Shown piece after piece: positions 12-30,606 of a stretch of DNA of 32,000 nucleotides. The DNA lies in NCBI RefSeq assembly GCF_000284455.1, contig NC_017039.1, positions 600,001-632,000 of the forward strand, given 5' to 3'. The stretch's first letter is position 1. Each line of letters begins with the position of its first letter. The notes below the pieces were generated by a model. It did not search any database, was not told the origin of the DNA, and worked only from the letters and a program-made list of their open reading frames with translations. The DNA comes from Synechocystis sp. PCC 6803 substr. PCC-P. Lineage in GTDB: Bacteria > Cyanobacteriota > Cyanobacteriia > Cyanobacteriales > Microcystaceae. The translations under genes were made by a program, and so were the position numbers.

Positions 12-935
12 TTAAAAATCAAAGAACTTTTGCCGGGGGTTAAAGGTTTCCTTTTCCCGAATTCTACGGTAAAGCTCCAATTCCTCTGGGCTGGGTTCCG
101 GGGGAATTTCCACCCGAATTTCCACTAACTGGTCTCCCCGATCGCCTTGGTTGTTGGGAAAGCCCTTTTTGGCCAAACGTAGTTTTTGACCATTTTTTAA
201 ACCCGCTGGCACAGTCATTTTCACCAGGCCGTCAATGGTCATCACCTCAATAGCGCCCCCCAAAATGGCTTCACTGGGAGTTACGGGCACCTGGCAAGCA
301 ATGTCCGTCCCCTGGAGAGTAAATAACGGGTGGGGAGAAAGGTTGATTTTTAGATATAGATCGCCCCCATTAATGCCCTGTTGCTTGAGGCGAATCCGTT
401 GCCCATCCCCCATGCCCCCAGGCATTTCCACCTCCAAAGAACGGCCATCTTCCAAACGAATTCTTTCCTTGCCTCCCCGGTAGGCTTTTTCCAACGGCAG
501 GGTCAAATTGGCTTCCACATCCCTGGGCACAGGGCGGGCGGGGGACACCACTTTCGTGCGTCTAGTTTCACTAAAATCTTGCCATGACTGCGCCGGCTGA
601 CGGGTTCCAGTGCGCCCAGTGGGGGTACGAACTTGGCCATTGACACTTGTTCCGTTAGGCGATCGCCCACCGTTACTATTGGGGCTAAAACGACTGGTGG
701 GGGGACGGCGGAATCGGCCAAATAAACGACTATCTAATTCCCGGCGCTTGGTTTCATCGGAAAGGACATCGTAGGCTTCGTTAATATCTTTAAATTTCTC
801 TTCCGCTGTTTTATCGTTGGGGTTAACATCAGGATGATACTGACGAGCTAGCTTCCGAAAAGACTTTTTAATCTCTTCAGCAGTGGCATTGCGGGGAACT
901 CCCAAAATTTGATAATAATTCCGCACTTGTTCCAT
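12..935 (-). CDS. dnaJ: DnaJ-family co-chaperone with a J domain and DnaJ C-terminal domains but no zinc-finger region
   Basis: 307-aa ORF with ATG at 935-933. The J domain has an intact HPD motif (YYQILGV...[11 protein letters not shown]...[10 protein letters not shown]). The C-terminal part is DnaJ_C-like ([39 protein letters not shown]). The linker is S/T/P/R-rich with no CxxCxGxG repeats. It lies 108 nt downstream of the dnaK paralogue on the same strand. Recalled as dnaJ3 (sll1933). Confidence 0.9.
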
Positions 936-1043
936 AGGGTTGCCAGAAAATACTCGCTCAATCCACTCAAACTAACTCAGGTCGAGGTTACAGGGGTAAA
1001 TCATCAACGGTTTTTACCGTCTTTGGTCAACGAACTTTTGACA

Positions 1044-3359: not shown

Positions 3360-3476
3360 GTTGTTTTCTTTGCTCCCAAAATTTGCAGAGCGGTTAATAC
3401 TCGTTAACACTAGGCACTTGCCCAACCATTATAGGAGTTTGGGGCGGGACCCTGGGCAAACTTCAACCTAGACCAT

Positions 3477-3504
3477 AAAACCCCAACCAATGGGCCAGGG
3501 TTTT
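3477..3504 (-). terminator. Candidate intrinsic (possibly bidirectional) terminator downstream of glyA
   Basis: Minus-strand RNA reads AAAACCCUGGCC-CAUU-GGUUGGGGUUUU. The stem has GC pairs plus three G-U pairs, flanked by A4 and U4. It lies 41 nt after the glyA stop and upstream of the dnaK paralogue start. The U tract is short. Confidence 0.45.
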
Positions 3505-3544
3505 ACAGACAAATTAGCAGATTGGGGAACGATGTTAATTCAAA

Positions 3545-4828
3545 TCAGGCGATCACCGCTACGGGAATGCGGAGATGATCATAGAGGGGGAAACCAGCAC
3601 AAAGTTCACTGACCCGGCGCAGACAATCCGCTTTTACGCCTTCATCTTCCGGGGACAACAGGCGATCGGCAATGATGTTGGCAATGGTGCGGAATTCGTC
3701 TTCCTGCATACCCCTGGTGGTCATGGCAGGGGAGCCCAGGCGCAAACCACTGGTGACAAAGGGAGATTCGGGGTCAAAGGGCACCGTGTTTTTGTTGGCG
3801 GTGATGTTGATTTCTCCCAACAGTTGATCGCCCACTTTGCCGGTCATGGCGATTGAGCGCAGGTCTACCAACATTAAATGGTTATCGGTGCCGCCGGATA
3901 CCAGGTCAAAGCCCCGTTTTTGTAACTGGTCGGCCATGGCTTGGGCGTTGGCGATTACCTGGCCAGAATAAACCTTAAATTCTGGTTTCAGCGCTTCCCC
4001 AAAGGCCACTGCTTTAGCGGTAATGACGTGCTCCAAAGGGCCGCCCTGGGTGCCAGGAAAGACGGATTTGTCGAATTTTTTGCCTAATTCCTCATTATTG
4101 GTCATGATCAAACCACCCCGGGGACCCCGCAGGGTTTTATGGGTGGTGGTGGTGACGACATCGCAATAGGGCAAGGGACTGGGATGGTGTCCTGAAGCCA
4201 CTAAACCGGCAATGTGGGCAATGTCTGCCATTAGGTATGCTCCCACTTCGTCGGCGATCGCCCGGAATTTATCAAACTCGATTTGTCGGGGATAGGCAGA
4301 GTAGCCACAAATCAACAGTTTGGGTTTAACTTCCAGAGCCTGTTGGCGGATTTTGTCGTAATCTAACCGACCCGTTTCCTTTTCCACACCGTAGTGGGCC
4401 ACTTCGAACCATTTACCAGAAACGTTGACAGGGGAACCGTGGGTTAAATGGCCGCCGTGGGAAAGGTCCATGCCCATAATGGTGTCGCCGGGCTGGAGCA
4501 GGGTTAAAAATACGGCAAAATTGGCCTGGGCCCCGGAGTGGGGTTGGACGTTGGCGTGGGCAGCCCCAAATAACTCTTTGACTCGACTGATGGCTAGCGT
4601 TTCCGCTTGGTCCACAAATTCACAGCCGCCGTAATAGCGTTTACCCGGCAGACCTTCGGCATACTTATTGGTTAAGACGGAACCCTGGGCCGCCATTACT
4701 GCTGCTGAAGTGAAATTTTCGCTGGCAATCAATTCAATGTGGGTGCGTTGCCGTTGTAATTCCCGGTCAATGATGGCCGCAAGGGCGGGGTCGCTGGTGG
4801 CTAAAAAGTCGAGGTTGGTTTGATTCAC
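3545..4828 (-). CDS. glyA: Serine hydroxymethyltransferase
   Basis: 427-aa ORF with GTG start at 4828-4826. The SHMT family pattern runs throughout ([25 protein letters not shown], the PLP-lysine region [23 protein letters not shown]). Confidence 0.95.
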
Positions 4829-5058
4829 GTCTTATCTTCCTGTAAACAGTGCTGGGGGCGGAAAGCACCGCGCTTCTTGAGTATTTACTAAGTTTATCGG
4901 AAAACCGGGTCTAAAACCCCGTCTTTCAGAGTGTGATATCTACAAAGCCACCTGTTACGGAGCGTGAAGCCGTTGTGACACTGAGTTGTCAAAAGATATT
5001 CGAGATCCGGACACTGAGGTCTACCTGAGTACAGTTTCCGTCTGGGAAGAAATTGTCA

Positions 5059-5614
5059 AGAGTTTCAAGAAAGTAATGAGAGGCGCCAGTTGTGTAGTGG
5101 TTCTATGTTACCACTGACCCTGAATTTGGCAAATATTGCCATGGTGATATCCACCATGTAGGCTGACCTGGAGAAAACTTTCGTGCGGCGATGAAATCTA
5201 GCAAACCAATGGCGATTATCTGAGTTGTTTCTCTCAATTCCTACTGTTTCTCTTTTGCTAATCCCATGAAACGCATCGGGATGTTCATCCAGTAGTTGTT
5301 GATAGGGCCCCCAGTCATCGGTGTAGTACACGGTCACTTTCCACTTTGCCAGTCTCTCCAGCAAACGACTCAGGGTTTGAATATCACGATCAATCAACTG
5401 AATGGTGAAAAGCCCAGTAGTTTTTACTATATCCAAATTTCATACAAAAGCAACCTAAATAGCTCAGAGGTACTATTTCTGTCCCGGCTCTCATCTTTTT
5501 TGAATTTTCACTACATAGATAACACTGATAATAGTACCTTTGTTTTATTCTACCTACGATAATAGAAGAGCGATAACTTCGGCAGTGCAAAACTCCGGTT
5601 TGAATTACAAAGCA
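5059..5614 (-). mobile_element. Degenerate IS1-family (ISY120-like) insertion sequence remnant, left copy, interrupted at its 5' side by ISY100
   Basis: Minus-strand reading gives an IS1 InsA-like zinc-finger stretch (CRSYRSSIIVGRIKQRYYYQCYLC). A frame-shifted InsB-like C-terminal part follows (YYTDDWGPYQQLL...GIERNNSDNRHWFARFHRRTKVFSRS). Positions 5059-5316 are about 85-90% identical by eye to the reverse complement of 9078-9334. Family name is from memory. Confidence 0.7.
5065..5436 (-). pseudogene. IS1-family transposase C-terminal fragment (123-aa ORF)
   Basis: The ORF covers only the C-terminal third of an IS1-type transposase. The upstream Zn-finger part is in another frame and the HTH segment seen in the right copy is missing. 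Confidence 0.65.
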
Positions 5615-5616
5615 TA

Positions 5617-5640
5617 TAGTAGTTTCAAATAAAGCTGAGA
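5617..5640. repeat. ISY100 terminal inverted repeat (transposase 3' side)
   Basis: Pairs with 6539-6562 at 19/24 positions. The TA target dinucleotide is immediately outside. Confidence 0.85.
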
Positions 5641-5642
5641 CG

Positions 5643-6137
5643 CTAAACGCCACGGTAAGAACGGATAATTTCATCAAGAGACGTGTCAATAGGAGCGTAC
5701 ATTCTAGCTCGTTTCAAGGCACTAAAGTCATGCTCAATATCATTTAAATCAGGAGAATATTTCGGCAAAAAAAGAACTTCATGACCTGCTTCTTTAGCCA
5801 ATTCTTTAATGGCAGTTTTACGATGAATAGGAGCATTATCCACTATTAATATTGATGGAATGTCGAGGGAGGGTAGCAAATATAATTTTAACCATCCTTC
5901 AAAGCCTTCTGCATTCAAACTCCCGGTAAAAACCATCGGCGCAATCAAATCTTTTTTTCCTTTTCTTCTCCCTGCTACTAGATTTTCTCTGACTCCCCTT
6001 TTTCCTTGTCTATCTCCATAAACTTTTTTTCCTTTTTTTGACCAGGCATAAATACAAGCCTGGATTGCTTCGAATCCAGATTCATCTATGTAAACTATAG
6101 CTTGACTACCATAGAGCTTAATTAGTTCTCTTAACAT
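5643..6137 (-). CDS. ISY100 transposase, DDE catalytic portion (downstream frame)
   Basis: 164-aa ORF carrying the motifs VYIDESGF, LIVDNAPIH and LFLPKYSPDLNDIEHDF, typical of the IS630/Tc1 catalytic domain. This frame stays open upstream of the first ATG, back to a stop at 6330-6332. Confidence 0.85.
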   Translation of the reverse strand: MLRELIKLYGSQAIVYIDESGFEAIQACIYAWSKKGKKVYGDRQGKRGVRENLVAGRRKGKKDLIAPMVFTGSLNAEGFEGWLKLYLLPSLDIPSILIVDNAPIHRKTAIKELAKEAGHEVLFLPKYSPDLNDIEHDFSALKRARMYAPIDTSLDEIIRSYRGV

Positions 6138-6490
6138 TCTATAGTACTTAACTCGTTCCTCCCGGTTTCTTTCTCGATAACGTAGTTCTTTTTTTTTCTG
6201 TTTATTTTCATTTTCTTTAATGCGTAATATACGGCACTCGGCCTCACTCCAAATTTCTTGGCTCTGTCTATCAATCTTGCATCGGGATTTTCTTCTACGT
6301 CTTTTTTTAGAGCTTCCCAGTCTAATTTCCTATGGCGACGCTCTACTTTTGTTGGGCTTAAATCTACTCTATTTAACCATCTGTATATCGAGGCTTTTCC
6401 TATTTTATATATCTTGGAAGCCTCAGTTATTTTTCCTCCAGCTTCTATATAAGCTACTACCCTTTGCCTTAAATCTAAACTGTAAGCTAT
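6131..6490 (-). CDS. ISY100 transposase, N-terminal HTH portion (upstream frame, no canonical start codon)
   Basis: Hand translation from 6490 gives IAYSLDLRQRVVAYIEAGGKITEASKIYKIGKASIYRWLNRV...VYYALKKMKINRKKK, then runs to a TAA at 6133-6131. The frame opens just after a TAA and contains no ATG, GTG or TTG near its 5' end; the first plausible codon is ATA at 6490-6488. It overlaps the downstream frame, which is offset by -1. Confidence 0.65.
   Translation of the reverse strand: MAYSLDLRQRVVAYIEAGGKITEASKIYKIGKASIYRWLNRVDLSPTKVERRHRKLDWEALKKDVEENPDARLIDRAKKFGVRPSAVYYALKKMKINRKKKNYVIEKETGRNELSTIEC
6189..6197 (-). other. A9 homopolymer (T9 on the plus strand) at the junction of the two transposase frames; candidate -1 slippage site or inactivating 1-nt deletion
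   Basis: Nine consecutive T at 6189-6197. One extra A in the mRNA, or a -1 ribosomal shift here, fuses the two frames into ...INRKKKELRYRERNREERVKYYRMLREL..., giving 282 codons. Confidence 0.55.
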
Positions 6491-6538
6491 TGTTTAAACC
6501 TGTTCATTTTGTACACTCCATAATTTTACATTAAATTC

Positions 6539-6562
6539 TCTCATCGTTAATTGAAATGACTA
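6539..6562. repeat. ISY100 terminal inverted repeat (transposase 5' side)
   Basis: Pairs with 5617-5640 at 19/24 positions. The TA target dinucleotide is immediately outside. Confidence 0.85.
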
Positions 6563-6566
6563 TAGT

Positions 6567-8696
6567 TCAAAAATTAACCGAAGAATTAAAGCTCTCGCGT
6601 GGATTCCATTGGATAGCTCCCTGTCCCGTGACCCACAATTGACCTCGATATTTTCCTATTGCTTGCTCCAAATTTTTGCTTACATAGGGTGCAATGGCGA
6701 TCGCCGTGGGAGGTCGTAAACTATCCAACCAACTGTAGGGAAAAAACTGACCAACCCAGATGATAATTTGGGGTCGTTGATCCAGCGGCAACTTCAAAGC
6801 AGTTTGATCTTTCTGGGGAACTTGTAGAAAAATCCACCAGCGTTTTTGAGCAAATTCCAGTTGCAAAATCCCTGGGCTGATGGCTACCCAACTCAGATGG
6901 GCGCAGGAAGGCGGTAGCGGTTGACCAATTATGGCGGGGGTGATGGTTAGTTTACAGTCAACTTGATTAATGCCCTTTTGAGCTAGGAAGGGAGCTAACA
7001 ATCTTGGTGCAGATTGATCCTCCGCCCTAGTAATGGTGGTTACTGCGCCTGGACTCTGGGCCACAATGACAGGAAATTCTTTACTATCAAAAATGGTCAA
7101 TTCCACCCTAGTTTGCAGGCTAAAAATCAGGGGTAAAATAATGGTGCCCAGTAAAAATGTGGAAACCAAACCCCAACGCCGTCGCCACCAGGGAAAGGCC
7201 CAGATCAAACAAAAAGCGCCGTACATTATGACCACTTGTCCTAAGCCCACTTCCCCCACTGCCACGGTGGGTAATTGTTGAAATTGGTCGGCGATCGCCA
7301 TTAACCAACGGGCAGGGAAAGCTAGCAACCAACCAGTGGCACTACCCAGGGGGGGAAAAATGAGCGCACATAGAGCACTGACCATTCCCCCCAAGCTCAA
7401 CAGGGCTAACAAAGGGGTAATTAGAATATTAAGGGGTAAGGCAGCAGGGATAAAATAGCCAAATTGTTGCAGAAGTATGGGTGTAGTCCAAACACTTGCT
7501 GCTAAGGGCACTGCTATCACCCCGGCAATTTTTCCTGGCAAAAAATCCAGCCGTTGCTGTAAGGGAGGCACCATCACCACAATGCCTAAAGTGGCTAAAA
7601 AACTGAGTTGAAAGCCCAACGCTTGGCTCCAGACGGGGTTAACCAATAGCATCACTGTGGCAATGAGCAATAACGCCCCCACGGTGTTTAATTTTTGTTC
7701 GCTGGCCAGGGCCGCCATTACCCCCACCCAGAGTAAACTAGCCCGGATTACTGAAGGTTCCAGCCCTGTTAAGCCCAGGTAAAATGCCAGGGTAATTAGC
7801 CCGACGGCGATCGCCAATTTAGAACTGACACCGGCCTTTTTGCCCAGGAGCAATACAGTCCCCACCAGTAGGGAAACTTGATAACCAGAGGCAGCCAGGA
7901 AATGGGAAAGCCCCACCGATTGGAAAAGATTGCGTAATTCCGTGGGCAAATTAACCGCTTTGGCGCCCAAGACAATGGAACTAATTAGCAAGCCAGGCCA
8001 TTGCCCTTGCCCCTGGACTGGTAACCAGGCTGTCTGGGCGTTGACAATTCTTTGTCGCAGGGGATTGAGACCGCAAAATTTTTCCCCCACTAGAGTCGCC
8101 GTTTCTCCTCTTAACCCGGCAAAAATACCCTGACGGGCCAAATATTGAGCAAAATTAAAGGCCCCCGGATTCTGGGGGGTACTGGGACGGTACAGCAAAC
8201 CTGTAACCCGTATTTGCTGGCATTGTTGCCAGGGTTGTTCTCCCATGGGCAAAGTCAGGTAAACAGTGCCAGAACGGGGCCGAAATTCTTTTTCGGGCGG
8301 CCGTTGCAGCTGCTCTACCTTGAGCCAAAATTGTTGTTGCCCTTGGGCGTTTTCTCTCCCTCCAGCCTTCAATGTACCGATCGCCGTGATGGTCTGAAAA
8401 CTTTTGGCCGGAGGATCTAGAAGGCGGCTAATGTCAGTTAAACCAGGCTGGGGCATGCGCCAAAGGGCGTAATAACTGGCCAGCAACGCAATTATTCCCG
8501 CCAGTAACCATTGCCATCTGGTTGGGCCCCGTCGCCAAACTAAGGGTAGAAAAATAATGGCGATCGTCGTAGCAAAAAACCACAGCCCAGCCAGCACAAT
8601 CAATTGATTAAGATTGAAAAAATCAACATCAAGCCCCGTCCCCAACAATCCCAGAATAAAGCTAAGACAAATTAAGGCCAGGGGATGGAAGCGCAT
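6567..8696 (-). CDS. comEC: DNA internalisation/competence channel protein ComEC (ComE/Rec2 family)
   Basis: 709-aa polytopic membrane ORF with an N-terminal OB-like region and a central competence-domain pattern (FQSVGLSHFLAASGYQVSLL, LEPSVIRASLLW). The C-terminal 180 aa look like a metallo-beta-lactamase fold but lack HxHxDH. Recalled as sll1929, required for natural transformation. Confidence 0.9.
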   Translation of the reverse strand: MRFHPLALICLSFILGLLGTGLDVDFFNLNQLIVLAGLWFFATTIAIIFLPLVWRRGPTRWQWLLAGIIALLASYYALWRMPQPGLTDISRLLDPPAKSFQTITAIGTLKAGGRENAQGQQQFWLKVEQLQRPPEKEFRPRSGTVYLTLPMGEQPWQQCQQIRVTGLLYRPSTPQNPGAFNFAQYLARQGIFAGLRGETATLVGEKFCGLNPLRQRIVNAQTAWLPVQGQGQWPGLLISSIVLGAKAVNLPTELRNLFQSVGLSHFLAASGYQVSLLVGTVLLLGKKAGVSSKLAIAVGLITLAFYLGLTGLEPSVIRASLLWVGVMAALASEQKLNTVGALLLIATVMLLVNPVWSQALGFQLSFLATLGIVVMVPPLQQRLDFLPGKIAGVIAVPLAASVWTTPILLQQFGYFIPAALPLNILITPLLALLSLGGMVSALCALIFPPLGSATGWLLAFPARWLMAIADQFQQLPTVAVGEVGLGQVVIMYGAFCLIWAFPWWRRRWGLVSTFLLGTIILPLIFSLQTRVELTIFDSKEFPVIVAQSPGAVTTITRAEDQSAPRLLAPFLAQKGINQVDCKLTITPAIIGQPLPPSCAHLSWVAISPGILQLEFAQKRWWIFLQVPQKDQTALKLPLDQRPQIIIWVGQFFPYSWLDSLRPPTAIAIAPYVSKNLEQAIGKYRGQLWVTGQGAIQWNPRESFNSSVNF

Positions 8697-22401: not shown

Positions 22402-24225
22402 TTATTGCGGTTGGGAAGGGGGAATACCCTTAATGGCAATTAGGGCCTCCATAACGTTTTTAACCACCGGGGCAGCCACGGTCCCCCCATAGGCATTGGC
22501 CCCCTTGGGTTCATCGATAATGGCCACCACCACATAGCGGGGATTGTCCACCGGCAAGATAGACACGAAGCTAGTGATTTTGGCGTTGGCTAAATAGCCC
22601 CCTCTGGGGCCAGCTTTTTGGGCTGTACCAGTTTTCCCACCCACCCGATAACCGGGAATCAGGGCCGCCTTGCCGGTACCCCCATCGCCGCTAACCACGG
22701 ATTCCATCATTTGCACCACGGAATGAGCTACTTCCGGCTTCACCACTTGTTTAACGGGGTGATCGGGTTGCCAGTGGAGATGGTTGCGGGCATCCACCAG
22801 ACCTTTAACCACGTGGGGAGTAACTAATTTGCCACCGTTGGCTAACATGGCGTTGAGTTGCAGTAATTTGATCGGAGTGAGGGAAAGACCCTGACCAAAG
22901 GAAGTGGTGGCCTGTTCAATGGGGTCATCCATAAAACTTTGCCTGGGCTTGAGATAACTGGCTGCTTCTCCGGGCAAGTCAATGCCTGTACGACTGTCTA
23001 ACCCCACCCCCTGCAATAATTCATAGTATCGTTCCGGCTTGAGACGACGGGCGATCGCCACCATGGCCACGTTACTGGAATAGCGGAGCACCTGGGTGAT
23101 GTTGATCATACCTGCGCCACTTTTGCTGGCATTGGAAATGGTCCAAGGCCCTACCCGCACCGAACCACTATCATTAATCCTGTCCTCTGGTTTCAACACC
23201 CCTTCATTCATCGCTAGGGCGACAATCACCGGCTTAAAGGTTGATCCCGGCTCGTACAGATCGCTCACGGACCAGTTTTTGAAATACTCCACCTTGGCTT
23301 TGTAGTATTCGTTGGGATTGAAGGTGGGCTCATTAACCATGGCGAGGATGGCTCCGTCCTGGGCATCCATGACCAAAACTGTGCCCCGCTTAGCTTTTTG
23401 TTGGGCAACCTGGGCCTTGAGCAATTCCCGGGCGGCCCGCTGCAAACGCATATCAATGGTTAACTGTACCTGCCAATCGTTGGACTGCAATAGGTTATCT
23501 GGCAAAGAATCCGGCAGCACAACCCCTTTCCCCGTGCGCCGAATGGCATAGGTCTCCACTTCTCGCTCCAAAATTTCTCTCTGACTGAGTTCTAGGCCTG
23601 CCTGGCCCTGGTGCTCCCCGTCTACGTAGCCAACAACATCGGCGGCCATTTCATCCTGGGGATAATAGCGACTATATTGTTTTTCCAAATCCACCCCCCC
23701 CATCCGTAAAGAGCCAATGCGGACAGCCTGGGACTCGTTGAGGCCGGTGGCCAGTTTGATGCCCGATTCCTTTTCTTTGAATTTTTCTTTTAGTTGGGCT
23801 GGGGTAATATCCCCCAAAATTGCCGATAGTTCCCTGGCAATGTAGTCAGTGGGATCGGTAATTTCCTTGGTGGCTTCAAAGTAACGGGGATGGACAAACA
23901 GAGTATAAGTTAGGCGATCGGTGGCTAAAACATTACCCTGGCTGTCCACAATGGAACGGCGGGGCACGTAGGGTTGCATGCTGGTGCTCTGTTGAGCCTT
24001 GGCCATGCGTTGCAGTTGGTTAGCTTCCACCACCTGGAGCCGGTAAAGACGATAAGCAAGCCCTCCCATGGCTACAAATAAAAACCCCCAGACCAAAAGC
24101 AAGCGCACTACCGGCACCCCCTGTTGTTGGGTTTTTTGTCTGTGCCTTTCCTGACGGGAAATATGCTTGGTAAAGGGAGATGAATTGGCAGTTGAAGAAT
24201 TTAGTTTTGGGTGGGAGGAGTCCAT
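22402..24225 (-). CDS. ftsI: Class B penicillin-binding protein / septal transpeptidase FtsI
   Basis: 607 aa. An N-terminal TM anchor and PBP dimerisation domain are followed by transpeptidase motifs STFK (YEPGSTFKP), SSN (RYSSNV) and KTG (GGKTGTA). Recalled as sll1833. Confidence 0.92.
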   Translation of the reverse strand: MDSSHPKLNSSTANSSPFTKHISRQERHRQKTQQQGVPVVRLLLVWGFLFVAMGGLAYRLYRLQVVEANQLQRMAKAQQSTSMQPYVPRRSIVDSQGNVLATDRLTYTLFVHPRYFEATKEITDPTDYIARELSAILGDITPAQLKEKFKEKESGIKLATGLNESQAVRIGSLRMGGVDLEKQYSRYYPQDEMAADVVGYVDGEHQGQAGLELSQREILEREVETYAIRRTGKGVVLPDSLPDNLLQSNDWQVQLTIDMRLQRAARELLKAQVAQQKAKRGTVLVMDAQDGAILAMVNEPTFNPNEYYKAKVEYFKNWSVSDLYEPGSTFKPVIVALAMNEGVLKPEDRINDSGSVRVGPWTISNASKSGAGMINITQVLRYSSNVAMVAIARRLKPERYYELLQGVGLDSRTGIDLPGEAASYLKPRQSFMDDPIEQATTSFGQGLSLTPIKLLQLNAMLANGGKLVTPHVVKGLVDARNHLHWQPDHPVKQVVKPEVAHSVVQMMESVVSGDGGTGKAALIPGYRVGGKTGTAQKAGPRGGYLANAKITSFVSILPVDNPRYVVVAIIDEPKGANAYGGTVAAPVVKNVMEALIAIKGIPPSQPQ

Positions 24226-24237
24226 GGCTCGAATTGT

Positions 24238-24696
24238 TTAGTAGGCAACGGGCCTAGTGGTGATGTTGAAATTGCTGGCGGAGGCAACGGTGGATTTATC
24301 AACGGAAGCAGGGGGAACACTAGCCTGGGCTGGCAGAAAAATATTCTGGCCAGGACTGGCCTTAACCAAACCAGAACTTGGTTGATTTGCTTCTTGGGCT
24401 AGTTGATGTTTGATGGCTTCAGTGTTGGTGATCAGTTGGCGTTCCGTTTGCTGGAGCGCTTTAAGTTGTTGATATTCCTTGCTCCAGAGGGTGGGGGTGT
24501 ACACCGTCCAACCATAAACCCCTAAAACCGTCGCCACTATTCCCAAGGTAAGGCAAGAAGTGGCCTGTTGAAACCGCAACAAGACCTGTAGAGAAGTGGG
24601 TAAAGATTCCTGGGGAGAGGTAATTAGGGGCGTAGGTTGGGAGGCAACTACGGTGGTACGGCGGGAGGCAAAGGCCGGTTTGGGTAAGGCAGACAT
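24238..24696 (-). CDS. Bitopic membrane protein with a periplasmic coiled coil; FtsL/DivIC-like candidate
   Basis: 152 aa. It has one TM helix (CLTLGIVATVLGVYGWTVY) followed by a heptad-like segment (EYQQLKALQQTERQLITNTEAIKHQLAQEA). It ends 12 nt before the ftsI start on the same strand. Confidence 0.6.
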   Translation of the reverse strand: MSALPKPAFASRRTTVVASQPTPLITSPQESLPTSLQVLLRFQQATSCLTLGIVATVLGVYGWTVYTPTLWSKEYQQLKALQQTERQLITNTEAIKHQLAQEANQPSSGLVKASPGQNIFLPAQASVPPASVDKSTVASASNFNITTRPVAY

Positions 24697-25000: not shown

Positions 25001-26383
25001 CTAAAGACCAGTTAACTTTTCCCCCCGCAGGGACAGATCAAGCAATTGGATGGGATGAATAACCCCTAGATTCTGGCCTTGTTTTCCCAGATGTTTTTGG
25101 ATTTGCAAAGAGCAGCCAGGGTTGGCGGAAATGATTAATTGGGCACCGGTTTGACAGAGATTGTTAACTTTTTGCTGCCCCAGTTCCTCTGCTACGGCTG
25201 GTTGGAGCATGTTATAGACCCCGGCACTGCCACAACAGAGGGCCGCATCCAAGGGCTCCCGCAACTGTAAATGGGGAATTTGGGCAATCAACTGTCGGGG
25301 TTGGAGACTAATTTTTTGACCATGGATCAGATGGCAAGCATCTTGATAAACCACAGGGGTTAATTCCTCAGTGACGGGGTGGAGGGTTTGATTTAACCCT
25401 ATCTCCATCAGAAACTCATTAATGTCTCGTACTTTACTAACAAAGGCTTGGGCTTTGGGTAAATATTCAGCATCGTCGGCCAAGATATGATGATATTCCT
25501 TCAGTGTGTGACCGCAACCGGCGGCATTAATAATGATGTAGTCCACCTCCGTATTAGCAAAACTGTCGATCATTTGTCTGGCGATCGCCTCGGCTTGATC
25601 TGTTTGGCCTTGGTGGGCGGGGAGGGCGGCGCAACAACCTTGGGATTGGGGAATCACTACTTCGCAACCATTGGCAGTTAAAACCCGGACAGTGGCTTCA
25701 TTGACGGGGGAGAAAAATAATCTTTGTACACACCCAAGAATTATCCCCACTCGGTAACGCTTTTCCCCCTGGGCAGAAATTTCCGTTGGATAATTATCCC
25801 GAAAAGAAGCGGCGGTCACCCTGGGCAAAATACTTTCCATGGCCGCTAAACGGGGAAAAAATCTGCTCAATAAGCCCGTTGCTTGCACTAATTTTTGCAA
25901 ACCACAATTTTGGTAGACCCAGAGCAGGGGCAACAATAACCGCAACCGCCAGGGATAGGGAAATAAGTTAAAAATGATCCCCCGCAAGAGGCGATCGCCA
26001 AAGGGACGGTCATGATTTCGTTCCACCTGGGGCCTGGTGGCGGAGATCAACTGGTCATACTGCACCCCCGAAGGACAGGCACTGACACAGGCTAAGCAAC
26101 CTAAACAACTGTCAAAATGCTGGATGGTGGTGGCATCTAAACTGGCTTGGCCTTGGTTAATGCCATTCATTAGATAGATGCGGCCCCGGGGGGAATCGGT
26201 TTCCTTGCCAATGACCCGGTAGCTCGGGCAGGTATTCAAACAAAAACCGCAATGGACACAGCTATCCAACACGGCCTGGGGAGGGGGATTTTGGGAATCA
26301 AAGCCGATTTTGGGCTGGTTGACGGCCTGGGCCAAGGCGGTGAAGGAGGGAGGAGCCGACATAGGGACCATGGGGAAAAACAC
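25001..26383 (-). CDS. glcF: Glycolate dehydrogenase/oxidase iron-sulfur subunit GlcF
   Basis: 460 aa (GTG at 26383; an alternative ATG at 26371). Two ferredoxin-type clusters are present (CVHCGFCLNTCPSY, CLGCLACVSACPSG), along with two CCG-type Cys-rich domains (GCCAALPAHQG, ALCCGSAGVYN, NPGC). Recalled as sll1831. Confidence 0.88.
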   Translation of the reverse strand: MFFPMVPMSAPPSFTALAQAVNQPKIGFDSQNPPPQAVLDSCVHCGFCLNTCPSYRVIGKETDSPRGRIYLMNGINQGQASLDATTIQHFDSCLGCLACVSACPSGVQYDQLISATRPQVERNHDRPFGDRLLRGIIFNLFPYPWRLRLLLPLLWVYQNCGLQKLVQATGLLSRFFPRLAAMESILPRVTAASFRDNYPTEISAQGEKRYRVGIILGCVQRLFFSPVNEATVRVLTANGCEVVIPQSQGCCAALPAHQGQTDQAEAIARQMIDSFANTEVDYIIINAAGCGHTLKEYHHILADDAEYLPKAQAFVSKVRDINEFLMEIGLNQTLHPVTEELTPVVYQDACHLIHGQKISLQPRQLIAQIPHLQLREPLDAALCCGSAGVYNMLQPAVAEELGQQKVNNLCQTGAQLIISANPGCSLQIQKHLGKQGQNLGVIHPIQLLDLSLRGEKLTGL

Positions 26384-26450
26384 TGTCCCCTATGATCACA
26401 CTTTTTTCTAGTCTGAAACCGTCAACTTACCCTTAACTTAATCAATGGCC

Positions 26451-27527
26451 TCAGTAGCGTAAAACCAAGGCAATACGTTGATGTTGAGAGAGGGTGCCAT
26501 CTTCGACTAAAGCCACTTCCCCACCATTGGCTAACACCACTTCGATGATTTCGTCCACTGCGTCGTCGATGACTTCCGTGCCACCGGGTTCCGCCACCAA
26601 TTCAATGCCTCCGTTAGTGGAGATAATGGCAGGCTCATGGTAGCTTTTCTCCACCACCAGCAATTTACCTCGACCTTCCTGGGCTAAACGCCAGGCTTCC
26701 CCCACGGTGGAAACAAATTTTTGCGCACTAACTGCTTCATCCAAGGAGGTTAAGGCTTGATTTTGTTTAGCTTCCCTGACCGTTTGCATAATCTCCCACA
26801 CCTGGGGGGTAAGTTCGCTGATGCTGGCCCGGTCAAAATTCCCCAGTAACGTACCGGCGATCGCCGCTGAATGCTGGGACACTTCTTGGAAAAAGGACAC
26901 TAAACGATCCACACCGCCCACCACTAACGGTAAATTTTCCCCTTCGTTATAGGTACTAAAAGCCCGGTCCACTTCCTGGATAAAACGACGCTGGCGATCG
27001 TCTCGATAACTGGAATCAGTGTCCGCTGGTAACGCTTCTGTTCCCCCAGGTCCCGTCATGGCCAAGGTGAAGTAATCATCTTCCACTTCCTCCAAAATAT
27101 CCCCAGTACCGGCCAGTAAACGACTTGATCCTCGGCTCAATAACAGTACCCAATATTGCAATTGCCGATGCAAACCATAGACCAAATCCCTGGTGGCGAA
27201 GGTTTTATCGATCACAACTCGAGCTTGAACAGGAAATGGTAAATAGTACAATTTGGCAAAATCGTGGCTCACATACAAAGCCAAACCACAAAGACCATAA
27301 CTGTAATCAATAGTCTCCACCAAGTTGTCTAAATTCTTTAGCAGAGGCTCCAATTCCCGCTGGGAATACTCTTCCCCCAATCGAGTTTTAGCTTCACTAA
27401 CCAAATTCTTAACCACAATGGGGTCTTGTTTATTGCCCGGGGAAGTGCGGTGGGTGGGCAGCAGAATGGAGAGGGCGGGAACAGGAGTTAAGGACTGTAA
27501 CTGCTTGAGGTCCTGACGATTGATCAT
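26451..27527 (-). CDS. Bacterial eRF1/Dom34(Pelota)-like protein (baeRF-type), function unknown
   Basis: 358 aa. N-terminus: DLKQLQSLTPVPALSILLPTHRTSPGNKQDPIVVKNL. Centre: LPLVVGGVDRLVSFFQEV. C-terminus: EAWRLAQEGRGKLLVVEKSY...VLANGGEVALVEDGTLSQHQRIALVLRY, which resembles the end of eRF1 domain 3 (GGIGAILRY type). No GGQ anywhere. CDS confidence is higher than the family call (about 0.5). Confidence 0.7.
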   Translation of the reverse strand: MINRQDLKQLQSLTPVPALSILLPTHRTSPGNKQDPIVVKNLVSEAKTRLGEEYSQRELEPLLKNLDNLVETIDYSYGLCGLALYVSHDFAKLYYLPFPVQARVVIDKTFATRDLVYGLHRQLQYWVLLLSRGSSRLLAGTGDILEEVEDDYFTLAMTGPGGTEALPADTDSSYRDDRQRRFIQEVDRAFSTYNEGENLPLVVGGVDRLVSFFQEVSQHSAAIAGTLLGNFDRASISELTPQVWEIMQTVREAKQNQALTSLDEAVSAQKFVSTVGEAWRLAQEGRGKLLVVEKSYHEPAIISTNGGIELVAEPGGTEVIDDAVDEIIEVVLANGGEVALVEDGTLSQHQRIALVLRY

Positions 27528-27673
27528 TTTGTCTTTACATAGGTCGATCCCCTAAGCTTACTGCCGGGGTCAGCAATGCTAACATTAAGAAAAATGTCGC
27601 GGTTTTTACATTTCTTTAAGTTTTAGGTAGTTAAAAATTCTAGTCAAAAGTCCATAAATCCCCCGCTAGCACC

Positions 27674-29374
27674 GTGCCTAACCCCAAACCCCTGCCACCC
27701 CAATCTGAATTGGATAATATTCGTCGCTACAATGCCCAGGCGATCGCCAACTATTACCGTCGTCGTCCCTGGAAAGTGCTATGGCGGGCCTTGGAAGTAG
27801 TTTGGTCCTTTGGTTTTTTCCTCACCTGTTTGCTCTGGGATCAGTGGACTGGTCAAGTGGAATACTACAAACGGCAACGGGCGGAGGATTTACGGGAATT
27901 GTTGACCAAACTGGGCCCCACTTTTATTAAAGTCGGCCAGGCTCTCTCCACCCGACCGGATCTGGTGCGGCGAGATTTTTTAGAAGAATTAATCAAACTC
28001 CAGGATCAATTACCCCCGTTCGATAACGACTTGGCTTTCCAGCTAATGGAAGAGCAACTGGGCATGAAAGTAGACGAAGCCTACCGGGAAATTTCTGCCC
28101 ATCCCGTGGCCGCGGCTAGTTTGGGGCAAGTGTACCGAGCGATGCTATTTAGTGGTGAAGAAGTGGCAGTAAAAGTACAACGGCCCAATTTAAGACCAAG
28201 GCTGAGTCTAGATTTATATTTGATGCGGTTGGGAGCACAGAAATTCGGGCGCTTTTTACCTTTAAATTTAGGTCATGACTTAACCTTAATTGTGGATGAA
28301 TTTGGTATTAAACTGTTTGAAGAAATTGATTATTTGAACGAAGGTCGCAACGCTGAAAAATTTGCGGAAAATTTCCATGGGGATGCGGAAGTCAAAGTCC
28401 CTTGCATTTATTGGCAATACAGTAATCAAAAAGTTCTCACCCTCGAATGGATTCAAGGTTTTAAATTAACTGATACAGATAAAATTCGGGCGGCGGGCCT
28501 CGACCCCAGTGATATTATTCGGATTGGGGTTACTTCGGGTTTAAGACAACTGTTGGAACATGGTTTTTTCCACGCCGATCCCCATCCCGGAAATCTTTTT
28601 GCTACCCTAGATGGTCGCATGGCCTATATCGACTTCGGCATGATGGATCAACTGGAGCCAGGGACAAAAGAAACCATTGCCAGCTCCATTGTCCAGCTAA
28701 TTAACAAGGATTACCTGGCCCTCACAGAAGACTTTATTGCCCTCGGTTTTCTTGCCCCCAACACGGACATTACCCCCATCATTCCTGCCCTAGAAAATGT
28801 TTTTGGTAGCGCCATTGGTCAAAGTGTCCAAGACTTTAACTTTAAAACCATCACCGACGATTTTTCTGAGTTGATGTACGATTACCCTTTCCGGGTTCCG
28901 GCCAAATTTGCCTTGATTATTCGTTCTTTGGTCACCCAGGAAGGATTAGCTTTAAGCTTAGATCCTAATTTTAAAATTGTTGAAGTGGCCTATCCCTACG
29001 TGGCCCGGCGTTTATTAACCGGAGAATCACCCCAACTACGTCGTCAACTCATTGATGTGCTGTTTAAAAATGGCAAATTCCAATGGCAACGGTTGGAAAA
29101 TATGCTCAGCATTGCCCGTTCGGACACCAAATTCGATCTTCTGCCCACTGCCCAATTAGGTTTGCAATTCCTTTTTTCCGAGGAAGGTCTATATTTACGG
29201 CGGCAAATTTTACTAGCTTTAACGGAAGATGATCGCCTCCATACCGATGAAGTACAACGGATTTGGGGTTTGGTAAAAGATGACTTTAAGCCCCAGGAAC
29301 TGGTCAATGTCGCCTGGAATGCAGTGCGGGAATTTTCCCTGGCCGGCGTGAGCACCATTCTGCCGCAACGATAA
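27674..29374 (+). CDS. ABC1/UbiB-family atypical protein kinase
   Basis: 566 aa with a GTG start. Motifs: LGPTFIKVGQALSTRPDL, AAASLGQVYRA, VAVKVQRP, FFHADPHPGNL, IDFGMM. Recalled as slr1919. Confidence 0.92.
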   Translation: MPNPKPLPPQSELDNIRRYNAQAIANYYRRRPWKVLWRALEVVWSFGFFLTCLLWDQWTGQVEYYKRQRAEDLRELLTKLGPTFIKVGQALSTRPDLVRRDFLEELIKLQDQLPPFDNDLAFQLMEEQLGMKVDEAYREISAHPVAAASLGQVYRAMLFSGEEVAVKVQRPNLRPRLSLDLYLMRLGAQKFGRFLPLNLGHDLTLIVDEFGIKLFEEIDYLNEGRNAEKFAENFHGDAEVKVPCIYWQYSNQKVLTLEWIQGFKLTDTDKIRAAGLDPSDIIRIGVTSGLRQLLEHGFFHADPHPGNLFATLDGRMAYIDFGMMDQLEPGTKETIASSIVQLINKDYLALTEDFIALGFLAPNTDITPIIPALENVFGSAIGQSVQDFNFKTITDDFSELMYDYPFRVPAKFALIIRSLVTQEGLALSLDPNFKIVEVAYPYVARRLLTGESPQLRRQLIDVLFKNGKFQWQRLENMLSIARSDTKFDLLPTAQLGLQFLFSEEGLYLRRQILLALTEDDRLHTDEVQRIWGLVKDDFKPQELVNVAWNAVREFSLAGVSTILPQR

Positions 29375-29499: not shown

Positions 29500-30606
29500 A
29501 TGTTTCTCAAGATTTTTCAAAAGAAGAACAATATTGATGCTACCCCAGAGGCTCCGGCCCCCGAGGAACAGAATGCCAAATCTACCTTGCCTGGTGTGCC
29601 AAGGGTGCCCATTGAAGAGCAAAAGCTTCTCCGTCGTCAGTGCAAACAGTTTGTCATTGATGAATTTGGTAAGTCTGTCATTAATCTTCGTCTCCAGAAG
29701 GGCATACTAACTCCTCTACACATTGTTGATCTTCATAAGGTGGTAGTGCCCCGGGAGTATTATCAAAATCCCCAGCGTTTGATTGAGCAAAGGGTACAAG
29801 AATGTTTGGAAATCCATCGCCAAAATCTGGGACAAAAACTTTATCGAGAATCTTTTAACCTTCAGCCGGGACATCTATTAGTTGCGATTAAGGACATTCG
29901 CAAAAAATCGATTGTATCTTTCAAGGATTACGCTGATAACCTGGACAAATTTTTAGAAATTTTTAACCCCGCTATCCATCAACTGCTACTAATTCGTTAC
30001 TTCATTCCCCCAGTTCCGGATGATATGCATCAGTTTGATAATATTGAACTGCCGCCTCAATTTGAGAAAATTTTGACTGATGTGATCAACTTTTGTGACC
30101 TCAATTATAGTCTGGATAATTTGACCTACGACAAATGGCAGGCTTTAGTCCATGCCCTAGATGAGACCGGGGTTAGCCTCAATTTAGTTAATAAACACCA
30201 GGAGTATCCTTTCCGGGAGATGTTTACCTTTGACTACGGAGAAATTGGCTACCGTAAAGTGTTAGCTAAATTATTACTAAAGGAAAAAGTGGAAAAACGA
30301 ACAGTGGTAATTCCCCTATTTGTGATTATGTTAGCTTTCTTTTGTTCGGAACCCAATGCCAGAGTTAGTTTTCCCTACCATTTTCTCTTTACTGCCACGG
30401 GGGATGCTAAGAAGCGTTCCATGGAAAAAGGTAAAATATCCTTCTTTAAGCTCTTTAATCAATTGTTGGATGAATCCTTAACCCAGGATCAACTAAGCAA
30501 GTGTTTAGCTGTAATTCACAATGAAGTTTTCCAAATTCACCAAATGGAAATTGATGATTTGCTCCTCGGTTACCGGCAAAAGCACAATGCCATGAGCGGA
30601 GTTTAA
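29500..30606 (+). CDS. Orphan hypothetical protein (368 aa), low-GC
   Basis: Long uninterrupted ORF in an AT-rich segment. No motif recognised. There is one hydrophobic stretch (VVIPLFVIMLAFFC). Recalled as slr1920 (unknown protein). Confidence 0.6.
   Translation: MFLKIFQKKNNIDATPEAPAPEEQNAKSTLPGVPRVPIEEQKLLRRQCKQFVIDEFGKSVINLRLQKGILTPLHIVDLHKVVVPREYYQNPQRLIEQRVQECLEIHRQNLGQKLYRESFNLQPGHLLVAIKDIRKKSIVSFKDYADNLDKFLEIFNPAIHQLLLIRYFIPPVPDDMHQFDNIELPPQFEKILTDVINFCDLNYSLDNLTYDKWQALVHALDETGVSLNLVNKHQEYPFREMFTFDYGEIGYRKVLAKLLLKEKVEKRTVVIPLFVIMLAFFCSEPNARVSFPYHFLFTATGDAKKRSMEKGKISFFKLFNQLLDESLTQDQLSKCLAVIHNEVFQIHQMEIDDLLLGYRQKHNAMSGV

Follow-up and report, generated by a model that had tools for sequence, protein, structure and literature searches.

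Gene content of the sll1830 locus

The window analysed here comprises 32,000 nucleotides of Synechocystis sp. PCC 6803 substr. PCC-P (NC_017039.1, positions 600,001 to 632,000) and contains an ORF whose translation is identical, residue for residue, to the Synechocystis sp. PCC 6803 protein Sll1830 (BAA17146.1; Table 1). A first-pass annotation, made from the DNA sequence alone, had recognised this 358-residue ORF without giving its strand; we find it on the minus strand with an ATG start, and all of the peptides quoted for it could be located in its translation, namely LTPVPALSILLPTHRTSPGNKQDPIVVKNL at residue 13, LPLVVGGVDRLVSFFQEV at residue 199, GKLLVVEKSY at 287, GGEVALVEDG at 335, and QRIALVLRY at 350-358. 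Homologues from many cyanobacterial orders share 65-87% identity, and close members of the Sll1830 cluster carry the NCBI/UniRef name "AOC03_06830 family ribosome hibernation factor". A search of the Synechocystis plasmids identified no second copy of sll1830, and Rfam and tRNA scans found nothing across the window.

Downstream of sll1830 lies a GlcF-like ORF, separated from it, as annotated, by 67 nt when the GTG start is used; the gap becomes 79 nt if glcF starts at an ATG 12 nt further on, as in one public gene call. A consensus scan found no terminator-like site in the 67-nt gap, and its folding energy was no better than that of shuffled sequence (z = -0.27), with no stable hairpin. Given this short gap and the lack of a terminator-like site, sll1830 and glcF may possibly be co-transcribed in Synechocystis PCC 6803, which a scan of this kind neither proves nor excludes. 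The ABC1 kinase ORF on the other side was confirmed to be on the opposite strand, and hence divergent from sll1830. The intergenic region between them presumably carries the sll1830 promoter; a consensus scan of this region found no sigma-70-type site. The Synechocystis primary-transcriptome text that was searched mentions neither sll1830 nor sll1831. Also, sll1830 is not part of a stress operon: no raiA/hpf or other stress gene adjoins it, and LrtA is not encoded in the window.

Table 1. Features of the sll1830 locus (feature, position in the window, strand, basis or remark).
GlcF-like ORF	25001-26383	-	GTG start; downstream of sll1830
Gap from sll1830 stop to GlcF-like ORF, 67 nt	26384..26450	-	without terminator signal
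sll1830 CDS, probable Balon-family ribosome hibernation factor	26451..27527	-	358 aa + stop, ATG start
C-terminal Pelota/eRF1-domain-3-like domain, ~269-358	26451..26723	-	model, alignment, Foldseek
Middle domain (release-factor core, RNase H-like) and long connecting helix, ~121-268	26724..27167	-	PF18845 match at 124-286 and model
GGQ-loop equivalent and Arg-rich start of the next helix, residues 148-181 (VEDDYFTLAMTGPGGTEALPADTDSSYRDDRQRR)	26985..27086	-	model and alignments
N-terminal domain, ~residues 1-120, putatively decoding-centre-binding	27168..27527	-	aligns with P. urativorans Balon 4-118
Conserved N-terminal loop P24-T-H-R-T-S-P30-G-N-K-Q-D-P-I-V-V-K-N41	27405..27458	-	alignments
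Intergenic region sll1830/ABC1 kinase, 146 nt, presumed sll1830 promoter	27528..27673	.	ORF coordinates
ABC1 kinase ORF	27674-29374	+	divergent from sll1830, 146 nt away

Family membership and predicted fold of Sll1830

Residues 7-358 of Sll1830 aligned to the entire NCBIfam equivalog NF052287 (profile positions 1-361 of 361), a curated NCBI model for the "AOC03_06830 family ribosome hibernation factor", scoring 377.1 bits, above the model's cutoff of 330. The Pfam baeRF_family3 model PF18845 was likewise matched over its whole length (residues 124-286 to profile positions 1-168 of 168; E 9.9e-41; 140.3 bits against a gathering cutoff of 31.5); Balon from Psychrobacter hits this model as well (E 4.6e-30). 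Searching PDB sequences with phmmer aligned residues 6-358 of Sll1830 to 4-369 of 8rd8_B, 8rdv, and 8rdw (E 1.8e-38), and BLASTP against Psychrobacter urativorans Balon returned 29% identity (E 1e-49), which accords with the "only 30%" that a preprint gives for Balon of Synechocystis (bioRxiv 10.64898/2026.07.03.736309). As judged from the scores for PF18845, NF052287, and 8rd8_B, the family match is far beyond chance. Psychrobacter Balon (PDB 8RD8/8RDV/8RDW) and Sll1830 fall within the same NCBIfam equivalog and the same Pfam family, and align end to end.

The Pfam models eRF1_1, eRF1_2, and eRF1_3 matched neither the whole protein at E<=1 nor any of its domains at E<=10, there was likewise no Pelota hit in Pfam, and only baeRF models were detected; the profile comparison proposed for this ORF thus succeeded for baeRF_family3 and NF052287 but not for eRF1_1/2/3. 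A profile constructed from 16 family sequences reached Balon and, at E 1.2e-4, the mycobacterial Balon Msmeg1130 among PDB sequences, but no aRF1 or Pelota chain at E<=10, so that Pelota and eRF1 are tied to Sll1830 by fold comparison only. When Foldseek was applied to the predicted structure of Sll1830, Balon ranked first (E 6.5e-23), followed by Msmeg1130 (E 2.4e-15), aRF1 (4af1; E 3.6e-12), and then eRF1 and Pelota/Dom34, with all 45 matches at E<=1e-3 belonging to the Balon/aRF1/eRF1/Pelota superfamily. The matches to Balon, Msmeg1130, and aRF1 span full three-domain chains, and the isolated aRF1 C-domain 3ir9_B was also among the structures matched. Together, the Pfam baeRF_family3 and Foldseek results bear out the earlier assignment of this ORF to the bacterial eRF1 superfamily (baeRF), and the predicted model, with its three blocks, reproduces the three-part layout and release-factor-like fold that had been read from the sequence.

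These structural relatives differ in how closely they resemble Sll1830. Msmeg1130 and Rv2629 (PDB 8V9J/8V9L/8V9K), for which an A-site-binding hibernation role is described in the literature, possess the same fold (Foldseek E 1.3e-09 for Rv2629) but are distant in sequence, at 13-18% identity in structural alignment, and a PDB search with the single Sll1830 sequence did not find either of them. The three-domain architecture and fold are also shared with aeRF1/eRF1, and A-site binding is common to aeRF1 and the Balon family; unlike Sll1830, however, aeRF1/eRF1 possess GGQ and NIKS motifs, and identity is only ~11-14%. From its sequence, Sll1830 would be neither a stop-codon reader nor a hydrolase. 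Pelota/Dom34, a non-catalytic A-site binder, has middle and C-terminal domains folded like those of Sll1830.

In the AlphaFold model of Sll1830, residues 1-38 and 74-118 fall below a pLDDT of 50, and assignment of the N-terminal domain therefore rests on its sequence alignment, with the decoding-centre role taken from work on the N-domain of Balon (PMC10901736). The middle domain is modelled with a pLDDT of 73-93 and comprises strands 124-130, 134-141, 144-147, and 201-205, and helices 172-193 and 236-267. In the C-terminal domain (pLDDT 65-92), strands were predicted at 287-293, 300-302, 308-310, 337-341, and 352-356; this domain holds a two-strand insert (~298-312), a D321-D-A-V-D-E-I-I-E329 block, and the ...IALVLRY terminus. 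Within the block, an alignment of 16 sequences drawn from several phyla shows no variation at D321, D322, A323, V324, I327, and E329. The model further places strand 201-205 followed by helix 207-216 at the LPLVVGG... segment, and the terminal strand 352-356 at the C-terminus; as predicted elements, these are consistent with, and no proof of, the likenesses to the Pelota/eRF1 patterns I.AGPGF.K..F and GGI.AILRY that had been noted for these two segments. At 358 aa, Sll1830 is 2 aa short of the range quoted in the authors' preprint for the Balon family, which has a three-domain aeRF1-like architecture of 360-420 aa.

Conserved loops and comparison with Psychrobacter Balon

A motif scan of Sll1830 detected no GGQ, NIKS, or NIKL, in accordance with the earlier observation that the ORF lacks a GGQ tripeptide. 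Psychrobacter Balon similarly possesses neither GGQ nor NIKS, and a GGQ anywhere in the sequence was found in just one of 43 cyanobacterial homologues. Features common to Balon and Sll1830 comprise a T-H-R-x-x-P-x-N-x-Q-D-P-I loop, a DDAV...E block, and a C-terminal IAL..RY. The first of these is part of the conserved N-terminal loop, in which P30 is invariant among 16 sequences of several phyla including Psychrobacter Balon, conservation reaches at least 90% at P24, T25, H26, R27, N32, Q34, D35, and I37 in the same alignment, and the loop is nearly invariant in the 43 cyanobacterial sequences. Upon alignment, the only His-Pro of the Psychrobacter Balon chain, H27-P28, corresponds to S29-P30 of Sll1830, which thus has Ser in place of His; position 29 is Ser in 36 of the cyanobacterial sequences, Phe in six, and Trp in one. 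The "HP motif" of Balon is described, with no residue numbers given in the papers, as an N-terminal insertion that binds the decoding centre (A1492/A1913), and the decoding-centre contacts of Synechocystis Balon use residues unlike those of Psychrobacter (10.64898/2026.07.03.736309).

The equivalent of the GGQ loop (residues 148-171) is positioned in the model between strand 144-147 and helix 172-193, the start of which is rich in Arg. Across the 43 cyanobacterial sequences this segment is of fixed length and its M-T-G-P-G..P..D..Y.DDR.RR pattern is nearly invariant; Sll1830 has no Gln within 148-171, and no conserved Gln column was found among the cyanobacterial homologues. The corresponding loop of Psychrobacter Balon differs in sequence, having an 11-residue insertion at its start and scattered small gaps elsewhere. 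None of the 15 other family members in the alignment has this insertion, and that includes Sll1830, whose loop on the side of the PTC has the M-T-G-P-G signature instead. In Balon, a loop of the middle domain encircles A2602 like a lasso, and the same domain provides a trap for bL27 (PMC10901736). The two-strand insert of the Sll1830 C-terminal domain (300-302, 308-310) can be aligned with Balon, with a single offset of one residue; in Psychrobacter, the C-terminal beta-loop of Balon contacts EF-Tu(GDP) (PMC10901736).

Probable function of Sll1830 and alternative readings

Balon of Psychrobacter urativorans (AOC03_06830) was characterised in 2024 by cryo-EM, genetics, and biochemistry as a protein occupying the A site of dormant ribosomes, and defines a family of non-hydrolysing, A-site-binding hibernation factors (Helena-Bueno et al., Nature 2024, PMC10901736). 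A July 2026 preprint subsequently reported cryo-EM of a Balon homologue from Synechocystis on LrtA-bound, non-translating 70S ribosomes, where it was found on a minority of ribosomes only, always together with LrtA, and where neither contact between EF-Tu and Balon nor binding to translating ribosomes was seen (bioRxiv 10.64898/2026.07.03.736309); part of the Psychrobacter mechanism may consequently not apply. We infer that Sll1830 is the Balon chain of this map (deposited model pdb_000031TX), for which the preprint text read gives no locus tag. Furthermore, a pull-down of Ssr3189, a protein associated with the ribosome, enriched Sll1830 along with all ribosomal proteins (August 2026 preprint, 10.64898/2026.08.10.743958), and high light and singlet oxygen both repress the sll1830 transcript (10.1101/2023.09.22.558817). 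Neither knockout nor overexpression of sll1830 produced an alcohol-tolerance phenotype (PMC5946031).

The first-pass annotation had considered this ORF the best candidate in the window for an uncharacterised system, stating that baeRF families have no demonstrated function. That view is out of date, as Balon is a baeRF_family3 member, and the claim of an uncharacterised system is refuted: Balon has been characterised, Sll1830 passes the cutoff of a curated NCBI model, and a homologue has been seen on hibernating ribosomes of the same organism. The ORF was called correctly, but belongs to a family already known and described in 2024, and carries little weight as a discovery. The proposed class, a non-hydrolysing ribosome-binding factor, was right in view of the missing GGQ and the A-site binding of the Balon family; of the two roles suggested for it, rescue and hibernation, only the latter has evidence behind it.

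We consider it very probable that sll1830 encodes a cyanobacterial Balon-family hibernation factor, a catalytically dead three-domain relative of aeRF1, acting at the A site as follows. Upon shutdown of translation, Sll1830 would move into the vacant A site of 70S ribosomes already carrying LrtA, an HPF-type factor, and its C-terminal domain would lie close to the L7/L12 stalk, on the side where factors bind. Its contacts would jointly obstruct the A site and prevent factors from binding, shielding the active centres until growth returns. Such A-site binding and contacts have been shown in the literature for Psychrobacter and mycobacterial Balon, and are presumed, residue by residue, for Sll1830. 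LrtA (HPF/RaiA-type) has an unrelated fold and another binding site, and acts as a functional partner of Synechocystis Balon, both sitting on one hibernating 70S ribosome (10.64898/2026.07.03.736309). Its gene, lrtA, is named for a "light-repressed transcript" (PMC11102965), and the similar repression of sll1830 by high light suggests that Sll1830 acts, like lrtA, in darkness or low energy.

The fold common to Sll1830 and Pelota/Dom34 (Foldseek E 1e-10 to 1e-6) could instead point to a rescue factor, which would enter the A site of stalled ribosomes and promote subunit splitting or recycling rather than storage. A non-catalytic Dom34-like role was among the options proposed for baeRF proteins by Burroughs and Aravind (PMC6514570), and the discussion of the 2026 preprint draws parallels with Pelota and chloroplast RRF (10.64898/2026.07.03.736309). 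Nevertheless, Foldseek places Balon and aRF1 above Pelota, the Balon family lacks loop A, which Pelota inserts into the empty mRNA channel (PMC10901736), and Synechocystis Balon was seen solely on idle 70S ribosomes with LrtA as opposed to translating or stalled ones. Considering also that Psychrobacter Balon preserves peptidyl-tRNA, keeps the catalytic centre inert, and does not split ribosomes (PMC10901736), we regard a rescue function as very unlikely. Membership of the aeRF1 superfamily with its full three-domain architecture might likewise be taken to indicate an active alternative release factor, hydrolysing peptidyl-tRNA under special conditions, particularly as a small number of baeRF families, among them notably family 10, retain the catalytic Gln (PMC6514570). 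With the best Pfam match to family 3 and an E of only 0.069 for family 10, the loss of GGQ and NIKS, the lack of Gln in the loop or of a conserved Gln column described above, and the exclusion of Balon itself from the catalytic centre (PMC10901736), the probability of such an activity is close to negligible.

A further reading, in which Sll1830 is tied to GlcF and photorespiration through co-transcription, its dosage following carbon or light status, draws on the same-strand arrangement, on the 67-nt gap without a terminator-like site, and on the high-light response of sll1830. Comparison of 80 related loci, including those of an 81%-identical Synechocystis MAG and of Snowella and Microcystis genomes, nevertheless offered no support for the functional link to glcF suggested earlier, as glcF, the ABC1 kinase gene, and ftsI were each missing from the surrounding ~6 kb in all of them (0/80). 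Clustering of flanking ORFs over these loci revealed no family present in more than 12, the recurrent neighbours elsewhere being DUF308/HdeD-like (12 of 36 cyanobacterial loci) and glutaminase (6/36) genes instead. With none of the neighbours in the window recurring, a conserved operon was rejected, and the adjacency of glcF is an accident of the strain lineage; a role linked to photorespiration is accordingly given only a slight chance. Many database records name the family of Sll1830 as chemotaxis proteins ("Methyl-accepting chemotaxis protein" in the PDB, "Chemotaxis protein" in UniRef, and in plasmid annotations), but this reading has names only in its favour: Pfam identified no chemotaxis domain at E<=1, and the PDB chain so named is Balon on the ribosome. 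We discount it entirely, and treat the label as a legacy misannotation.

For the Balon-family reading of Sll1830, what interest remains lies in the clade-specific differences from Psychrobacter Balon. Tentatively, and less likely than not, the baeRF family 3 clade of cyanobacteria (together with Chloroflexota and allied groups) might represent a mechanistically distinct Balon subtype, having a short, almost invariant M-T-G-P-G loop of fixed length on the peptidyl-transferase side and Ser for His ahead of the invariant Pro in the decoding-centre loop, requiring LrtA-stabilised 70S ribosomes, and engaging neither EF-Tu nor translating ribosomes, with read-through from sll1830 into glcF coupling expression to light and carbon status in Synechocystis 6803. 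In the cyanobacterial clade, a strictly conserved loop of its own stands in the place of the longer one of Psychrobacter Balon, and marks residues at which to ask what sets hibernation of the Balon type apart in phototrophs, whose translation is switched off every night.

Family assignment and predicted fold of Sll1830

The first-pass annotation had read a 358-aa ORF as an eRF1/Dom34-like protein and as the best candidate in the window for an uncharacterised system. We recovered this ATG-started frame (table below), and its product matches Sll1830 of Synechocystis sp. PCC 6803 (BAA17146.1) at every residue; the 3.57-Mb chromosome CP129343.1 carries the identical protein beside the same genes, so the window comes from the chromosome of this model cyanobacterium. 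All peptides quoted in that annotation are present, starting at residues 13, 199, 287, 335 and 350, and GGQ is indeed lacking, as are NIKS and NIKL in a motif search of the whole protein. Near-identical proteins of other Synechocystis strains in its 90% cluster bear the name "AOC03_06830 family ribosome hibernation factor" (NCBI, UniRef), and the sole NCBIfam match is the equivalog of that name, NF052287 (377.1 bits, the cutoff being 330; residues 7-358). AOC03_06830 of Psychrobacter urativorans was renamed Balon by Helena-Bueno et al. (Nature 2024, PMC10901736), with 8RD8, 8RDV and 8RDW as its ribosome complexes, and 8rd8_B (also in 8rdv and 8rdw) was the only significant chain in a PDB sequence search with Sll1830, aligning end to end (E 1.8e-38). 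By BLASTP the two proteins share 29% identity (E 1e-49).

In Pfam, Sll1830 matches baeRF_family3 (PF18845; E 9.9e-41, residues 124-286), with weaker matches to baeRF families 7, 6, 8 and 11. Because PF18845 also matches Psychrobacter Balon (E 4.6e-30), the two belong to a common Pfam family and not just a superfamily. Conversely, no Pfam match to eRF1_1/2/3 was found, even domain by domain at E<=10, and the family profile, searched against PDB chains, reached the mycobacterial homologue Msmeg1130 (E 1.2e-4) and neither aRF1 nor Pelota chains. The link of Sll1830 to classical release factors is thus invisible at the level of sequence profiles.

This link emerges from structural comparison. An AlphaFold2 model built from an alignment of 43 cyanobacterial homologues had a mean pLDDT of 70.5, with 73-93 in the middle and C-terminal domains and poor values in the N-terminal domain (<50 at residues 1-38 and 74-118). 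Foldseek against the PDB placed three Balon chains on top (E 6.5e-23 to 1.5e-21), followed by Msmeg1130 (2.4e-15), archaeal aRF1 (4af1, 3.6e-12), many eRF1 chains, Pelota/Dom34 and the mycobacterial homologue Rv2629; all 45 matches at E<=1e-3 belong to this eRF1/Pelota/Balon superfamily. This structural comparison, which the first-pass annotation had suggested, bears out the release-factor-like fold. Both that fold and the function class initially read from sequence were correct, whereas the system no longer counts as uncharacterised: the Balon family was described in 2024 (PMC10901736).

Sll1830 as the probable Synechocystis Balon and its sequence differences

The baeRF families were defined computationally in 2019 by Burroughs and Aravind, who predicted that these proteins insert into the A site, are catalytically inactive and are linked to shutdown mediated by HPF (PMC6514570). 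Balon homologues occur in ~20% of representative bacteria. An "HP motif" docks the N-domain of Balon at A1492 and A1913 of the decoding centre, and the mRNA channel stays untouched. The middle domain, in which GGQ is missing, forms a lasso-like loop round A2602 and traps the tail of bL27, with the catalytic centre left inert, and the C-domain is in contact with EF-Tu(GDP); RaiA and Balon can bind together (PMC10901736). For Synechocystis, a July 2026 cryo-EM preprint (bioRxiv 10.64898/2026.07.03.736309) reports a "homolog of Balon", "only 30%" identical to that of Psychrobacter, on non-translating 70S particles with LrtA (an HPF/RaiA-type factor) and E-site tRNA, constituting 7% of all classified particles and, in the text, 10% of hibernating ribosomes. 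As described there, contacts with uS12 and the L7/L12 stalk resemble those of Psychrobacter Balon, different residues contact rRNA at the decoding and peptidyl-transferase centres, no EF-Tu-Balon contact is seen, and Balon was not found on translating ribosomes.

Given that the 29-30% identity figures agree, that the family model is passed and that a search of the Synechocystis plasmids found no second copy, Sll1830 would be the Balon chain of this preprint, and we consider it very probably the Synechocystis Balon. Independently, a pull-down of Ssr3189, a protein that associates with ribosomes, enriched Sll1830 along with all ribosomal proteins; the study describes Sll1830 only as resembling a release-factor subunit (bioRxiv 10.64898/2026.08.10.743958). 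High light and singlet oxygen repress sll1830 at the mRNA level (10.1101/2023.09.22.558817), and existing knockout and overexpression strains have no alcohol-tolerance phenotype (PMC5946031).

We aligned Sll1830 and Psychrobacter Balon with four further cyanobacterial sequences and with ten homologues of other origin, Chloroflexota among them. Best kept among these 16 sequences were the N-terminal loop P24-T-H-R-x-x-P30-x-N-x-Q-D-P-I, F110-x-T-R-D/E-L, the strand-helix unit P200-L-x-x-x-G205-x-x-R208 (modelled as strand 201-205 and helix 207-216), D321-D-A-V-D-E-I-I-E329, and the C-terminal I-A-L-x-L-R-Y (terminal strand 352-356). The modelled strand and helix at 201-216 and the terminal strand would fit the equivalences that the first-pass annotation drew to the I.AGPGF.K..F motif of Pelota/eRF1 and to the GGI.AILRY ending of eRF1. 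In Sll1830, S29-P30 falls in the alignment columns of the sole Psychrobacter His-Pro (H27-P28); the Pro is invariant, while position 29 is Ser in 36, Phe in 6 and Trp in 1 of 43 cyanobacterial sequences. Across the same 43, the GGQ-equivalent loop (residues 148-171) is fixed in length and nearly invariant, with the signature F-x-x-x-M-T-G-P-G-[AG]-T-x-x-[LIV]-P-x-x-x-D-[ST]-x-Y-x-D-D-R-x-R-R and no conserved Gln; it is followed by the Arg-rich helix pointed out for baeRF proteins (PMC6514570). In Psychrobacter Balon this loop opens with an 11-residue insertion (EFDTDNAKQNN; alignment columns about 150-160, window position about 27086) absent from all 15 other aligned members, including Sll1830. 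These differences agree with the preprint's remark on different rRNA-contacting residues (10.64898/2026.07.03.736309); apart from them, the finding repeats known facts. The cyanobacterial clade may represent a distinct Balon subtype, LrtA-dependent and EF-Tu-independent, with its own invariant peptidyl-transferase-side loop.

Alternative functions and the glcF neighbourhood

Four other readings, taken together, are very improbable. A Pelota-like rescue factor is suggested by the Pelota/Dom34 fold matches, which rank behind Balon, and an active release factor by those to aRF1 and eRF1, set against a loop devoid of GGQ. The third reading, a chemotaxis protein, comes from database labels: this is the usual name of family members encoded on Moraxella osloensis plasmids or on large plasmids of Streptomyces and Kitasatospora. 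The label, also on Balon's PDB entry, is a legacy misannotation.

The fourth, a glcF-coupled function, derives from the proposed co-transcription with glcF. The spacing holds, with 67 nt between the sll1830 stop codon and the GTG start of the GlcF-like ORF, as does the divergent ABC1 kinase gene on the opposite strand. Since no terminator-like site lies in this gap and its predicted folding is no stronger than that of shuffled sequence, read-through from sll1830 into glcF would be possible. An NtcA-bound internal transcription start reported inside glcF (PMC5714215) shows that the region downstream of sll1830 has its own promoters. A functional tie fails the comparative test: in 80 loci encoding relatives with 37-81% identity, of which 36 were of cyanobacterial type and most others from Chloroflexota, no homologue of GlcF, the ABC1 kinase, FtsI, orf152 or orf368 lay within ~6 kb; this neighbourhood was seen only on the two PCC 6803-type contigs. 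Recurrent cyanobacterial neighbours were instead a same-strand DUF308/HdeD-like membrane protein gene within a few kb (12/36; e.g. L009:10250-10882 in one surveyed locus), a Microcystis-specific radical-SAM enzyme and MoaE pair (10/36), and a same-strand glutaminase gene (6/36, five just downstream at a median distance of 15 nt). The Balon paper lists HdeD among neighbours related to stress (PMC10901736); in the window neither the DUF308/HdeD-like nor the glutaminase gene adjoins sll1830. The closest non-cyanobacterial relatives among the loci fetched were Chloroflexota (Anaerolineae, Caldilineae; 45-50% identity).

Other features of the window

Features of the window, with coordinates as window positions
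Feature	Coordinates	Strand	Remarks
Region of dnaJ, long dnaK and serine hydroxymethyltransferase gene	12-4828	-	DnaK 793 aa, C-terminal extension past Hsp70 domain (NF009946)
Serine hydroxymethyltransferase gene	3545-4828		follows dnaJ and dnaK
Low-GC patch	5001-7000		GC 0.40 against ~0.50 on both sides
DDE_3 transposase fragment	5643-6137	-	164 aa, inside low-GC patch
ComEC-like competence gene	6567-8696		
FtsI-type penicillin-binding protein gene	22402-24225		
orf152	24238-24696	-	152 aa, 12 nt upstream of FtsI-type gene
GlcF-like ORF	25001-26383	-	GTG start, 460 aa; two CCG domains and 4Fe-4S dicluster; top NCBIfam match GlcF
sll1830	26451-27527	-	ATG start, 358 aa
ABC1/UbiB-type kinase gene	27674-29374	+	divergent from sll1830, 146 nt apart
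orf368	29500-30606	+	368 aa, 125 nt downstream of kinase gene

The GlcF-like ORF scores 299.8 bits with the GlcF equivalog model, under its cutoff of 333, so that the name glcF rests on best match and domain content; public gene calls differ on its start, with 460 aa from the GTG or 456 aa from an ATG that lies 12 nt further in. Neither orf152, which matches no family in Pfam or NCBIfam, nor orf368, an orphan with nothing significant in either library, could be assigned. By eye, orf152 has a single hydrophobic segment, CLTLGIVATVLGVYGWTVY, then a Gln/Leu-rich stretch. Genes for FtsL/DivIC-type division proteins usually lie immediately before ftsI, and its position and layout are reminiscent of these. 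The low-GC patch with its DDE_3 fragment is probably an insertion-sequence remnant adjoining the ComEC-like gene. With serine hydroxymethyltransferase, ~20 kb from glcF, the window encodes a second enzyme related to photorespiration.
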